Shown piece by piece: positions 52,618 to 56,189 of a DNA stretch of 64,000 bases (its first letter is position 1; each line of letters opens with the position of its first letter). The stretch lies in the sequence record NC_100372.1. One strand, written 5' to 3'. A model generated the notes under the pieces. It was not told the DNA's origin. It ran no database searches and saw only the letters and a list, made by a program, of their open reading frames with translations. Position numbers and translations under genes: made by a program. Origin of the DNA: a phage.

Positions 52618-52896
52618 ATGAGCTGTGAAAAATCTTTTTTCATTATCATCTACGGTAAGGATAACTGCCCACATTGTGTAAGAGCAAAAGAATTTGCAGC
52701 AAGCAAAGGTATACCTTTCGTATACAAGACGCTCGGTGAAGGATACACAAAAGAAGAGCTTATTGAGAAGTGTAGTCCATTTGTTCCCAGAACGTTGCCT
52801 CAGATCTTCTTGGAAAGCAACCTTGATAGTGTCCACATAGGTGGTGCTGACGATTTCATCTCTTTTGTTAAGAATGGTTTTGGAGAGAAAAAGTGA
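52618..52896 (+). CDS. glutaredoxin / NrdH-like redoxin
   Basis: 92 aa; CPHC active site (GKDNCPHCVRAKEF); between nrdB and nrdD. Confidence 0.7.
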   Translation: MSCEKSFFIIIYGKDNCPHCVRAKEFAASKGIPFVYKTLGEGYTKEELIEKCSPFVPRTLPQIFLESNLDSVHIGGADDFISFVKNGFGEKK

Positions 52897-55016
52897 AAGT
52901 TGTAAAACGGGACGGTAGAGAAGAGGTCTATAACGGAGTTAAGGTAATCAAGGCGGCAGAGTCCGCCTTACTTGAGTCTGGGCATACTGAAGAAGAAGCT
53001 TACCGGATCGCTTGTGCGATTAATGAAGTTGTTGCCAACAATCTACCAACCGACCAGTGCACGATCTCTGTAAAAAATATCCATATCCTTGTTGAAGATG
53101 CTCTTATGGATATGGGTTTAAAATGTGCAGCCAGAGAATATATCCAGTATAGACAGACAAGAGATAATAACAGAGAGGCAGGTGGAAAACTGCTTGCAGA
53201 TATTAGTGGCTTCTTGGATCGAACTTGTGATGAATTTACAAAAGAAAACGCAAATAAGCCCACTAATCATGTACATACTCATCGTGACCTGCTTGCAGGT
53301 ATCCTTAGCAAACACCTTGCATCAACACAGATACTGCCAGATCGTGTCTCCGAAGAGCACAACAAGGGATTCATCCATGTGCATGATCTTGACTATCTGA
53401 TCAGTCCGTTAACAAACTGCTGTTTGGTGAATTATCCGGATATGCTGGAAAACGGATTCAACATTGGCAACGCCCATGTCAGTAAGCCGAAGTCAATAGG
53501 GGTTGCAACAACAATCCTCAGCCAAATCTCTAGTGCAGTAGCTAGTGCTCAATATGGTGGTCAGACCATGAGCCATATTGATCATTATCTGGCGCAGTAT
53601 GCTGAAGCAACCTATGAGAAGAATCTTAAATTTTGTCAGGAACATTGGTTGCCGGATGCTGAGACTGTTGCAATGCAAATGACGGATAAAGACGTGTTTG
53701 ATAGTATGCAAACTTTGCTATACCAAATCAATACGTTAACTTCTGTCAACGGGCAAACCCCATTCATCACATTAAGTTTAGGACTGGATACCTCAATCTT
53801 TGGTAGAATGATTACCAAAAACTACCTGAAAGTCCACAAAATGGGTCTTGGTGAAGAACGTATCACACCTGTGTTCCCTAAGGTGCTGTTCTTCCTGGAG
53901 GAGGGTATCAACATGAACCCCGGGGATCCTAACTATGATTTGAAACGATTAGCTCTGGAATGCTCTGCAGAGCGGATTTATCCTGACTTCGTATCTGTAC
54001 CACTAAATAGAAAAGTGACAGGTTCAACAGAAGGTAATGTCACAAGCATGGGTTGCCGGAGTTTTCTTAGCAAATACAATGACTTGGAAACAGGAGAGGA
54101 GAAATACCTTGGCAGATTTAACTTAGGTGTTGTTAGCCTTAACCTACCAATGATTGCGGCAAAAGCTAAAACGGAAGGTGTTGATTTCTTTGCAGTTCTT
54201 GACGAGTACTTGGATCTGGCATACGAGGCTCATCTTGTAAGGGTTAACCGTCTAAAAGGAACAAAGGCAGGGCAGAACCCCATCATGTGGTGTGAAGGAG
54301 CTCTTGCTCGCCTGGATCCTGAAGAGAGTATTGATAAACTCTTCTATGACGGGTATGCTTCCATAAGTATTGGATATATTGGTGTGTATGAAACCTGCCA
54401 GATTTTAGGCAGAGAGGGAGACAAGTCCTTAGCTCTTGGGATCCTTCAGCACATGAAAGACGCTTGTGATCGGTACAAAAAAGAAAGTGGTCTGGCATTC
54501 AGCTTGTACGGCACTCCTTCAGAGAGCTTGTGCTATAAGGCTGCAACATGTCTAGATCGTGAATATCCTGAAGTGTTGAAGCACGAGCACGAATACCTTA
54601 CCAACAGTTTCCACCAGCCCGTGTGGATCAATAGCTCACCTTTTGACAAGTGGAAGTATGAGGAAGGTTTTGCTATGATCTCTTCTGGCGGTAACATTGG
54701 ATACATAGAAACACCTAACCTGAAAAACAACCTGGATGCTTTGGAATCCCTTGTCGATTTCGGGTATAAACACATTATGTATTTTGGTATTAACCAACCT
54801 GTGGATAAATGTCTTAAGTGCGGATTCTCTGGTGAGTTCAGTGCAACAGCTAAAGGCTTTGTATGCCCAGAGTGCGGAAACCATGAAGAGGGAACGATCA
54901 GTGTGATTAGACGTGTATCTGGGTATCTGTCCAGTCCAAACTCCCGACCTTACAACAAAGGTAAGCAAGCGGAAGTTATAGAACGGGTTAAGCACTACGG
55001 CAGCTGTGGTTGCTGA
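52893..55016 (+). CDS. nrdD: anaerobic ribonucleoside-triphosphate reductase (class III)
   Basis: 707 aa; N-terminal ATP-cone, C-terminal zinc site CLKCGF...CPECG and glycyl-radical motif RRVSGYLSS; GTG start. Confidence 0.9.
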   Translation: MKVVKRDGREEVYNGVKVIKAAESALLESGHTEEEAYRIACAINEVVANNLPTDQCTISVKNIHILVEDALMDMGLKCAAREYIQYRQTRDNNREAGGKLLADISGFLDRTCDEFTKENANKPTNHVHTHRDLLAGILSKHLASTQILPDRVSEEHNKGFIHVHDLDYLISPLTNCCLVNYPDMLENGFNIGNAHVSKPKSIGVATTILSQISSAVASAQYGGQTMSHIDHYLAQYAEATYEKNLKFCQEHWLPDAETVAMQMTDKDVFDSMQTLLYQINTLTSVNGQTPFITLSLGLDTSIFGRMITKNYLKVHKMGLGEERITPVFPKVLFFLEEGINMNPGDPNYDLKRLALECSAERIYPDFVSVPLNRKVTGSTEGNVTSMGCRSFLSKYNDLETGEEKYLGRFNLGVVSLNLPMIAAKAKTEGVDFFAVLDEYLDLAYEAHLVRVNRLKGTKAGQNPIMWCEGALARLDPEESIDKLFYDGYASISIGYIGVYETCQILGREGDKSLALGILQHMKDACDRYKKESGLAFSLYGTPSESLCYKAATCLDREYPEVLKHEHEYLTNSFHQPVWINSSPFDKWKYEEGFAMISSGGNIGYIETPNLKNNLDALESLVDFGYKHIMYFGINQPVDKCLKCGFSGEFSATAKGFVCPECGNHEEGTISVIRRVSGYLSSPNSRPYNKGKQAEVIERVKHYGSCGC

Positions 55017-55019
55017 TAC

Positions 55020-55049
55020 TTGACAAAAGCCACAAGGATGTGGCATATT
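55020..55049 (+). promoter_or_regulatory. sigma70-like promoter (TTGACA-N18-CATATT)
   Basis: TTGACA 55020-55025; -10 CATATT 55044-55049; upstream of small Cys-rich ORF and nrdG. Confidence 0.4.
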
Positions 55050-55079
55050 GTTGTTACACAGTAAACTAGGAGGTGCAGT

Positions 55080-55196
55080 ATGTCGTCAGGTATTTATAAA
55101 ATTTGCAAGTGTGGTTGTCATTGCAATCTTCGTTGGTGCAAGGCACTGGATGATTTTATTTGGCATTGTCCTAAATGTGATGCGGAGTACTTATGA
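55080..55196 (+). CDS. small Cys-rich zinc-ribbon-like protein (38 aa) coupled to nrdG
   Basis: RBS AGGAGG then ATG 55080; MSSGIYKICKCGCHCNLRWCKALDDFIWHCPKCDAEYL; stop TGA overlaps nrdG ATG (ATGA). Below the ORF-track size cutoff. Confidence 0.4.
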   Translation: MSSGIYKICKCGCHCNLRWCKALDDFIWHCPKCDAEYL

Positions 55197-55666
55197 ATAT
55201 TGTCGGATACACAGAAATATCCTACACCGAAGGGCCAGGTCTCAGGACGGCCTTGTGGGTATCTGGGTGCCCACACGCTTGTCCTGGTTGCTTTAATCAA
55301 GCATTTTGGTCCAAAGATAAGGGAAGAGAATTCACCGAAGAAGATTTGCAGAGAATTTTGTCAGATTTGGACAATGAATCTATATGCGGTATTTCTTTGC
55401 TTGGTGGAGAGCCTTTGGCTACGTATAATGAGCCCGGTATTATTAAACTTATGAGGAGAATTAAGGAAAAGTTTGGTGACAAGAAAACTATTCTTGTGTA
55501 TACTGGGTTCACATTTGAGCATATCTCTAGTGATGTTCTTGAGCTGGCTGATATCATCATTGATGGCAAGTATGTAAAAGATTTACCAACAAAGAAACCA
55601 TTCCGAGGCAGCGATAACCAAAGAATGTTTAAAAAGGTAGCAGGCGGTTGGGTTCAGGTTGACTAA
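55193..55666 (+). CDS. nrdG: anaerobic ribonucleotide reductase activating protein (radical SAM)
   Basis: 157 aa; CxxxCxxC radical-SAM cluster motif CPHACPGC; follows nrdD. Confidence 0.85.
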   Translation: MNIVGYTEISYTEGPGLRTALWVSGCPHACPGCFNQAFWSKDKGREFTEEDLQRILSDLDNESICGISLLGGEPLATYNEPGIIKLMRRIKEKFGDKKTILVYTGFTFEHISSDVLELADIIIDGKYVKDLPTKKPFRGSDNQRMFKKVAGGWVQVD

Positions 55667-55669
55667 TCG

Positions 55670-55699
55670 TTGACAAAGCTTTGGTAAGTTGGTTATAAT
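55670..55699 (+). promoter_or_regulatory. consensus sigma70 promoter (TTGACA-N17/18-TATAAT)
   Basis: TTGACA 55670-55675, TATAAT 55694-55699; followed by RBS GAGGAGG and ATG 55729. Confidence 0.6.
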
Positions 55700-55728: not shown

Positions 55729-55842
55729 ATGGCTAAAAAAGCCTTGAAGAAGGCGTACAAGAAAGAGATTGCGCTTGAGCTTAAGAAAAAACACAAGCGT
55801 GAAAAGAAATATCATGAAGATGAAGAGGGGGTGCAGCAGTGA
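55729..55842 (+). CDS. small Lys-rich basic protein (37 aa)
   Basis: MAKKALKKAYKKEIALELKKKHKREKKYHEDEEGVQQ; strong promoter and RBS; stop overlaps GTG start of next gene. Below ORF-track cutoff. Confidence 0.35.
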   Translation: MAKKALKKAYKKEIALELKKKHKREKKYHEDEEGVQQ

Positions 55843-56189
55843 CACAAGAGCGTATTGATTTAGCCAGTAAGTTTGTAGATCTCATTTTGCCACGGTTGGT
55901 TACTCAACATGCAGACGCTATTTCTACCAATCTTGATGGCTTACGCCTAATGCTGAACCGAACAGATGACCCACGTATTCGGGCCGATTTAGAGGCCTCT
56001 GCCAACAAACTGGAAAAGTTCTTGCAAGTAGACACGCAAGAAGCCTTGCACAAGATTATGGTGGAAGGTTTCTCTAAAGAATTCACCGTTAAAGAGCTTA
56101 AGGAGCTGATCCGCCAAGAAGAGATGAATATCCGAGTTCAGGCTGTTGCAAGCAGCATGGAAGCGGCTATTGAAAAACTGTTGCAGTAA
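55839..56189 (+). CDS. hypothetical protein
   Basis: 116-aa helical ORF. Confidence 0.4.
   Translation: MTQERIDLASKFVDLILPRLVTQHADAISTNLDGLRLMLNRTDDPRIRADLEASANKLEKFLQVDTQEALHKIMVEGFSKEFTVKELKELIRQEEMNIRVQAVASSMEAAIEKLLQ

Follow-up and report, generated by a model that had tools for sequence, protein, structure and literature searches.

We examined a small open reading frame (ORF) in a stretch of phage DNA of 64,000 nucleotides (sequence record NC_100372.1), referred to here as the window, where it lies between the two genes of the anaerobic, class III ribonucleotide reductase (RNR). The upstream gene, nrdD, encodes the 707-aa catalytic subunit (52893–55016, + strand; Pfam NRDD, E = 2.7e-161, with Gly_radical and ATP-cone), and the downstream gene, nrdG, encodes the 157-aa activase, a radical SAM protein (55193–55666, + strand; Fer4_12, E = 4.5e-43; Radical_SAM, E = 1.9e-8). 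The ORF between them, which we call the mini-gene, occupies 55080–55196 of the + strand, with its ATG at 55080 and its TGA at 55194–55196, and a reading of the sequence together with the ORF list gives the 38-residue product MSSGIYKICKCGCHCNLRWCKALDDFIWHCPKCDAEYL. Seven of its residues are cysteines (C9, C11, C13, C15, C20, C30 and C33), which fall in the motifs C-K-C-G-C-H-C (residues 9–15) and H-C-P-K-C (residues 29–33), apart from C20. A longer N-terminus is excluded by an in-frame TAA at 55062–55064, and a Shine-Dalgarno (SD) sequence, AGGAGG, stands at 55068–55073 (+ strand) with a 6-nt spacer to the ATG. A preliminary description of this DNA had pointed out the strong ribosome-binding site (RBS), the 38-codon frame opening at 55080 and the two cysteine motifs, all of which are present. 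At the other end of the mini-gene, the ATG of nrdG (55193–55195) overlaps the stop codon as ATGA, and a GGAG within codons A35–E36 (GCG GAG; 55184–55187, + strand), 5 nt before this ATG, reads as the SD of nrdG; the record of phage Murica annotates this internal GGAG as the nrdG ribosome-binding site.

A 38-codon ORF is not by itself beyond chance, as the 7 kb around it have 99 ORFs of 25 aa or longer. The locus was extracted from 23 sequences of the roughly 120 records that carry it, which yielded 17 distinct nucleotide versions of a 28-codon core. Among these versions the variable columns at codon positions 1, 2 and 3 number 9, 3 and 18 (Fisher p = 2e-4), and the pooled ratio of non-synonymous to synonymous polymorphism (pN/pS) is 0.11 in the frame that encodes the cysteines. 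The +1 frame has a pN/pS of 1.14, with many pairs skipped for stops, and the +2 frame contains a stop in every sequence, so that the Cys frame must be the gene. These codon statistics indicate that the 38-codon frame is a true protein-coding gene under strong purifying selection, and they bear out the conservation of the frame between nrdD and nrdG of related phages that the preliminary description had proposed as a check. Set against L010, the clade that diverges most, the core shows differences at 11 of about 14 synonymous sites but only three non-synonymous changes; the mini-protein core is 87.5% identical to that of L010, and NrdG 57%. All seven cysteines are invariant across every version examined. 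In relatives, His14 is replaced by R, S, K or E and His29 by Y, and these two histidines are therefore not conserved ligands. Longer variants of 41 and 53–54 aa carry C-K-(H/D)-C-G-C-x-C, that is, a standard C-x2-C-G first knuckle, and those of 53–54 aa have an additional Lys/Glu-rich N-terminal tail.

Two other readings of the same DNA were considered and rejected. An overlapping 82-aa ORF at 55048–55296, in the frame of rV5 gp109, was set aside on its pN/pS of 1.14 and its stops in relatives; gp109 itself (YP_002003611.1; L005, 1114–1341; 75 aa) overlaps the mini-gene in that other frame and is probably a mis-call. An RNA element in place of, or besides, the ORF was also rejected, as the mini-gene region had no Rfam match and folded more weakly than shuffled sequence (z = +1.76). 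The 'terminator' that the Murica record annotates within the mini-gene is a weak stem with three G-C pairs.

The window belongs to a Vequintavirus, an rV5-like myovirus of E. coli. The 1-kb stretch around the mini-gene is 99.8% identical to Escherichia phage vB_EcoM-ECP26, and DNA matches were found in 119 phage records. The preliminary description had called the mini-gene unannotated, which does not hold: the ECP26 record lists it, at identical coordinates, as a 'hypothetical protein' coding sequence (CDS; QDB73550.1), as do S127 BCL3 and many others, and it is left unannotated in the records of FV3, Murica and typing phage 4. Residues 1–38 of the mini-protein match positions 1–38 of the 38-position profile phrog_20137 (E = 4.6e-30), to which the PHROG database attaches the label 'ribonucleotide reductase'. 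Further CDS of the same family are bas50_0184 (DrSchubert) and naswa_203, the latter named 'putative anaerobic ribonucleoside-triposphate reductase [phage APCEc02]', and MiataMamis likewise carries an RNR-type name. The label in phrog_20137 and in the RefSeq records looks like a propagated name, unsupported by similarity to any RNR subunit. In summary, the mini-gene is already catalogued in public records, and its kind, the small Cys-rich zinc-finger-like proteins of phages, is already known.

With tblastn at a coverage of at least 80%, the mini-protein was found in 120 phage records, all of which except ACG-C91 are rV5-like genomes of about 130–143 kb. Eighteen of these matched records were deposited as 'Campylobacter phage'; the records concerned (MG0656xx, host C. 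jejuni) are about 90% identical to the E. coli rV5-like locus where the whole 1-kb query aligns, and their C. jejuni host labels look doubtful. Among 1.8 billion representative proteins there were only three true relatives (P0002, P0003 and P0005); two other candidates, P0001 and P0004, were rejected as repeat-protein artefacts. A word-indexed search of 5.8 billion sequences returned close variants only, and degenerate DNA patterns returned only Vequintavirus-type contigs and ACG-C91, besides two off-frame chance matches (L008 and L009). The same kind of pattern did not find the mini-gene among 185,579 bacterial and archaeal species, each represented by one genome, nor did blastn find it in 5,426 complete E. 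coli genomes. The sole 'plasmid' match, in PLSDB (CP057073.1, 126292–126405), is a 137.6-kb sequence from an E. coli of cattle faeces and evidently a Vequintavirus genome. The family is thus narrow and confined to lytic phages.

We compared the nrdD–nrdG junction among relatives. There is no ORF between nrdD and nrdG in phiTE (Certrevirus), ZCKP1 (Phapecoctavirus) or TH18, where the stop of the one directly overlaps the start of the other, and for this reason the spacer of the Vequintavirus genomes is taken as an insertion into a once-coupled gene pair. Every Vequintavirus-type genome examined has the mini-gene between nrdD and nrdG, and its SD (AGGAGG or AAGGAG) is kept in all the Vequintavirus-type relatives examined, even where the upstream region is different. 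The preliminary description had the mini-gene translationally coupled to nrdG, and this stands in part: the ATGA overlap recurs in most relatives examined, including the divergent clade (L010 and L028), but in rV5-type genomes the mini-gene ends in TAA (TTATAA instead of TTATGA), the divergence beginning exactly at its stop codon, and is followed by two small ORFs (gp110, and gp111, which belongs to phrog_3249) and then by a divergent nrdG. The NrdG proteins of the window (55193–55666) and of rV5 (L005, 1680–2153) share 55% identity despite their belonging to the same genus. nrdG is always overlapped by the preceding ORF, which is nrdD in the other genera, the mini-gene here and gp111 in rV5.

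The upstream side of the mini-gene is also a site of change. ORFs of homing-endonuclease type lie just 5′ of its RBS in typing phage 14 and naswa (T5orf172/DUF723/treble-clef) and in L010 (HNH_3), and JEP1 likewise has an extra ORF just upstream of the RBS. In T4, mobC sits in the nrdG/nrdD junction, and nrdD and nrdG are targets of seg and mob genes (PMC2988022); the endonuclease ORFs upstream of the mini-gene fit such targeting in T4-like phages. Hence, the sequence comparison indicates that recombination junctions bracket the mini-gene, one at its RBS and the other at its stop codon. The nrdD gene itself is split or invaded in several relatives: TH18 (L018) has three NRDD pieces, the RefSeq entry of FV3 (L003) annotates only a 1284-nt piece, L028 (687–3936) has an ORF with HNH_3 and NUMOD1 between two NRDD pieces, and L010 (18–1867) has nrdD in two pieces with the HNH_3 ORF after it. 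In the window, nrdD is one intact ORF of 707 aa.

Within the spacer, a sigma-70-like promoter match (TTGACA-18 nt-CATATT, with TG before the second hexamer) lies at 55020–55049 (+ strand) and agrees with the consensus at 10 of 12 positions; it could be the start of a transcript spanning the mini-gene and nrdG. Inside its spacer, 3′ of the nrdD stop, a 6-bp hairpin (GCCACA-AGGA-TGTGGC; 55029–55044, + strand) forms a putative weak terminator-like site. The bases of both the promoter-like match and the hairpin are also found in rV5.

The only copy outside the rV5-like genomes is that of the podovirus vB_EcoP_ACG-C91 (Vectrevirus, SP6-like; L004, 2998–3108), which is 85% identical in nucleotide and 77% identical in amino-acid sequence. 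It stands between a gp1.7-like nucleotide kinase gene (DUF3310) and the gene of an ATP-dependent DNA ligase, beginning 1 nt after the kinase stop and overlapping the ligase start as ATGA, and the ligase is preceded by GGAG-N5-ATGA; as its own SD the copy has just GAGGA, at a distance of 8 nt. The 6.1 kb examined around this copy have no annotated nrd gene. Coupling of the mini-gene to nrdG thus varies: it is lost in rV5-type genomes, and the ACG-C91 copy is coupled to the ligase gene instead. In K1E, the same slot (L029, 499–615) holds a canonical four-Cys zinc ribbon of 38 aa (AQY55013), also ATGA-coupled: MTCPNCGSEETEHVVMSDTYHFYFCHSCDTTIEEEEAV. This Vectrevirus slot has homologous flanks on either side, which reach as far as the ATG and resume at the TGA. 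As the ACG-C91 copy fills the slot of the K1E ribbon, the mini-gene family is a portable cassette, which has taken the place of an unrelated zinc ribbon, one whole ORF for another. A third occupant, in Mt1B1_P10 (L030, about 499–672), is a 57-aa ORF of phrog_15259 that is not Cys-type, and the slot can be described as one of interchangeable mini-ORFs, each abutting or overlapping the ligase start.

We then looked at what the mini-protein itself resembles. Pfam gave no match for the 38-aa form (E ≤ 1) and none for the 41-aa variant at E ≤ 10, and the 54-aa variant matched only HVO_0758 at that threshold, non-significantly (E = 0.9); in NCBIfam (E ≤ 10) the only match was L37ae (E = 4.3), with no SCIFF-type match. 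The best PDB sequence matches, all non-significant, were the zinc ribbons of PolD DP2 (E = 0.2), a haloarchaeal CPxCG protein (E = 0.34) and eL43, and a CDGSH protein was also among the non-significant matches (phmmer E = 0.33, with no stretch passing). AlphaFold2 predicted beta-hairpins at a mean predicted local distance difference test score (pLDDT) of 66 from the single sequence and 65 from a 9-sequence alignment, and the two models differ; the alignment-based one has strands at 16–20, 25–30 and 35–37. Foldseek found no significant structural neighbour, and the best non-significant matches from Foldseek and from hidden Markov models were zinc fingers or zinc ribbons. The second knuckle, C30-P-K-C33, fits CPxC, and the first is C-x-C in the window form and C-x2-C-G in the 41- to 54-aa variants. 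The likeness to a small zinc ribbon that the preliminary description had seen is thus upheld as far as the Cys knuckles go, which are compatible with it, but it receives nothing from the histidines, which vary, or from Pfam. Judging from these models, a zinc-ribbon-like description of the mini-protein is reasonable. The seven invariant cysteines would in all likelihood coordinate one metal ion or two, probably of zinc; a single Zn(Cys)4 site would not use all seven, and an additional metal site, a bridged one or an iron centre is possible. Descent from the NrdD zinc ribbon, from the adjacent homing endonucleases or from the K1E ribbon was considered and rejected, hhalign giving only knuckle-level matches.

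The genes around the nrdD–nrdG pair are closely spaced. An nrdC-like glutaredoxin ORF with a CPHC motif (52618–52896) has a 4-nt overlap with the start of nrdD, a GTG at 52893, and only 3 nt separate it from the end of nrdB. The whole nrdA-nrdB-nrdC-nrdD block is compact, and its genes may be coupled in translation. Just 3′ of nrdG, at 55670–55699, there is a perfect sigma-70 consensus promoter (12 of 12 positions). Next come a 37-aa Lys-rich ORF (55729–55842; phrog_7670, E = 5e-20) and one of 116 aa (55839–56189; phrog_7650), the GTG start of the second overlapping the end of the first.

Our reading of these observations is a composite one, namely that the mini-gene is a coding, portable gene for a metal-stabilised, autonomous binding mini-protein of rV5-like phages, and that its 3′ end serves the translation of nrdG. 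We consider this composite somewhat more likely than not. The peptide would fold as a small beta-hairpin, zinc-ribbon-like structure around Zn via its cysteines, as the models suggest, with the C-terminal W-x-C-P-x-C as a classic second knuckle and the N-terminal C-x(1-2)-C-G-C-x-C providing the first knuckle and spare thiolates. Together with nrdG the mini-gene would form a two-gene unit, in which it comes first and which may be transcribed from the sigma-70-like promoter in the spacer. Its translation would deliver ribosomes to nrdG, whose SD lies in the last codons of the mini-gene and whose start shares bases with the mini-gene stop; other Vequintavirinae would use the end of nrdD for this purpose. 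The peptide may then act as an autonomous metal-stabilised binding module, whose partner we infer to be a host or phage protein or a nucleic acid. We do not regard it as a cofactor that RNR specifically requires; what ties it to the reductase is its position.

Several points weigh against this composite. No Pfam zinc-ribbon model matches the mini-protein, and our literature searches found no experimental evidence of its translation, metal binding or partner, nor anything relevant on Vequintavirus transcriptomes or on small proteins near anaerobic RNR. The mini-gene is also disrupted in some genomes. In phage nimi (MN850626; L022, 401–517), codon 9 is TGA instead of TGC, a premature stop with the downstream nrdG intact, which is either a natural knockout or a sequencing error; P0005 is a deletion fusion of the mini-gene, and Alma (P0007) has a frameshift in it. 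With at least three disrupted lineages, the mini-gene must be dispensable under some conditions. Finally, two clades with NrdG proteins of only about 55–57% identity both have it upstream of nrdG, which could equally mean a functional tie to the reductase.

Such a tie is the substance of the alternative that survives best, in which the mini-protein is an RNR accessory. It might donate electrons to NrdG from an Fe(Cys)4 or Fe-S centre, serve NrdG as a metal or assembly factor, or modulate the NrdD–NrdG encounter, for example by resembling the C-terminal zinc ribbon of NrdD. We regard it as unlikely, if worth keeping in mind. The position between nrdD and nrdG in all the Vequintavirus-type genomes examined, mostly with ATGA coupling and including L010 and L028, speaks for it, as does its having stayed next to nrdG in two clades between which NrdG differs by more than 40%; however, other Vequintavirinae and Stephanstirmvirinae have nrdD–nrdG without the mini-gene (phiTE, ZCKP1 and TH18), rV5-type genomes place two ORFs before nrdG, the paired NrdG alleles are only 55% identical, and the ACG-C91 copy is flanked by kinase and ligase genes, so that a strict co-occurrence with nrdD and nrdG fails. 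The sole hhalign pairing in the NrdD of the window is indeed its C-terminal zinc ribbon (residues 636–663), but at a probability of 1.8%. Similarly, W-x-C-P-x-C and the C-x2-C-G of the long variants resemble rubredoxin knuckles, and the C-x-C-x8-C spacing is the same as in CDGSH domains, but neither a rubredoxin nor a CDGSH model matches and the His ligand of CDGSH is missing. The nimi copy, with its stop at codon 9 and an intact nrdG, also argues against an accessory role. The preliminary description had suggested that the mini-protein could assist the class III RNR activase as its redox or metal partner; given the coupling to ligase in ACG-C91, the rV5 arrangement, the absent models and the varying histidines, this is a positional guess, and nothing that we tested favours it.

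The narrower proposal that the product is an Fe(Cys)4 or small Fe-S mini-metalloprotein, which serves a radical-SAM activase such as NrdG by reducing or assembling its [4Fe-4S] cluster, has in our estimate a small chance of being right. If it were, activation of the anaerobic reductase would be independent of host flavodoxin, and the mini-protein would be the first dedicated class III RNR partner known and, at 38 residues, among the smallest redox proteins. The present evidence leaves knowledge of class III ribonucleotide reductases unchanged.

The mini-gene might instead be a coupling leader only, that is, a translated spacer that restores ribosome delivery to nrdG and whose peptide has no function, the need for it having arisen after the promoter/terminator region and mobile elements parted nrdG from nrdD. 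The constant presence of an overlapping ORF before nrdG (nrdD, mini-gene or gp111), the location of the nrdG SD within the last mini-gene codons and the disruption of the mini-gene in a few genomes are all in line with this. A functionless peptide would not be expected, though, to keep all seven cysteines and nearly every other residue (pN/pS 0.11) while synonymous sites saturate, to be better conserved than NrdG, or to be transferred intact to another phage family, and we think it quite improbable that coupling is all there is.

It is less probable still that the mini-gene is a homing-endonuclease remnant or accessory, a zinc-finger DNA-binding piece left over from an element at the nrdD–nrdG junction. 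Endonuclease-type ORFs do lie directly upstream in typing phage 14, naswa and L010, and the corresponding junction of T4 hosts mobC and is a seg/mob target (PMC2988022), but hhalign against the neighbouring endonucleases gave knuckle-level matches only (probability 0.3–1.9%), the mini-gene is present with or without an adjacent endonuclease, and its strong purifying selection is unlike that of a decaying remnant. The idea of a precursor of a ribosomally synthesized and post-translationally modified peptide, in which the adjacent radical-SAM enzyme would modify a Cys-rich peptide in the manner of SCIFF peptides and ranthipeptides, draws on the seven cysteines in 38 residues directly 5′ of a radical-SAM gene, but is hardly credible, as NrdG is a standard 157-aa Fer4_12 activase from end to end, lacks a SPASM-type domain and has its substrate NrdD adjoining, NCBIfam gave no SCIFF-type match at E ≤ 10, and the ACG-C91 copy lies between kinase and ligase genes with no radical-SAM gene.

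Returning to the composite reading, a portable binding mini-protein whose 3′ end serves the next gene, we note how cleanly the mini-gene behaves as a cassette. One ORF family occurs in the nrd operon of a myovirus and in the ligase operon of a podovirus, where it replaces a canonical zinc ribbon, and this offers a tractable test case for how phages shuffle micro-genes while the downstream genes stay translated. There are also consequences for annotation, since the RNR label in PHROGs and RefSeq is unsupported and rV5 gp109 is apparently called in the wrong frame.

Other nrd operons encode small proteins that act as redox or metal partners, such as the YfaE ferredoxin with nrdAB (class Ia) and NrdI and NrdH with nrdEF (class Ib); no such partner is known for class III RNR. 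The mini-gene is like them in being a small Cys-rich ORF within an nrd gene cluster, but has no sequence or model similarity to them, and its family also occurs outside nrd clusters. Phage Mu Com is a small zinc-finger protein whose gene overlaps mom, and the mini-gene resembles it as a small zinc-finger-type ORF overlapping the start of the downstream gene; the two differ in that there is no RNA structure to open at the mini-gene (z = +1.76), and their sequences are not similar. Compared with CDGSH proteins, the C9-x-C11-x8-C20 spacing is shared, but C20 is followed by K-A-L-D and not by D-G-(S/A/T)-H, so that there is no His as fourth ligand. The rubredoxin profile of Pfam does not match the mini-protein, and the knuckles of rubredoxins are about 29 residues apart, compared to 16–18 in the mini-protein.

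Zinc ribbons are closer. NrdD of the window carries its own C-terminal C4 zinc ribbon (CLKCG...CPECG; residues 636–663), encoded about 100 nt from the mini-gene. Its first knuckle, C-x-K-C-G, recurs in the long variants, and C-P-E-C is a second knuckle common to both; the NrdD ribbon has 14 residues between the knuckles, compared to 18 in the long variants, and the mini-protein has three more cysteines, and homology between the two is not demonstrable. The K1E ribbon has weak, sub-threshold matches to dozens of Pfam zinc-ribbon models, of which the mini-protein has none, and hhalign aligns the two over eight residues only, at the CPxC knuckle. From the C4 zinc-ribbon mini-proteins in general (K1E AQY55013, haloarchaeal CPxCG and PolD DP2) it differs in having seven cysteines rather than four and, in its 38-aa form, a C-x-C first knuckle, and it resembles them in size, in the aromatic residue before CPxC, in its predicted beta-hairpins and in being ATGA-coupled to the next gene. 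Hence, if the mini-protein is made and binds metal, it would be a very small, atypical, seven-Cys member of the poorly studied zinc-finger micro-proteins of phages.

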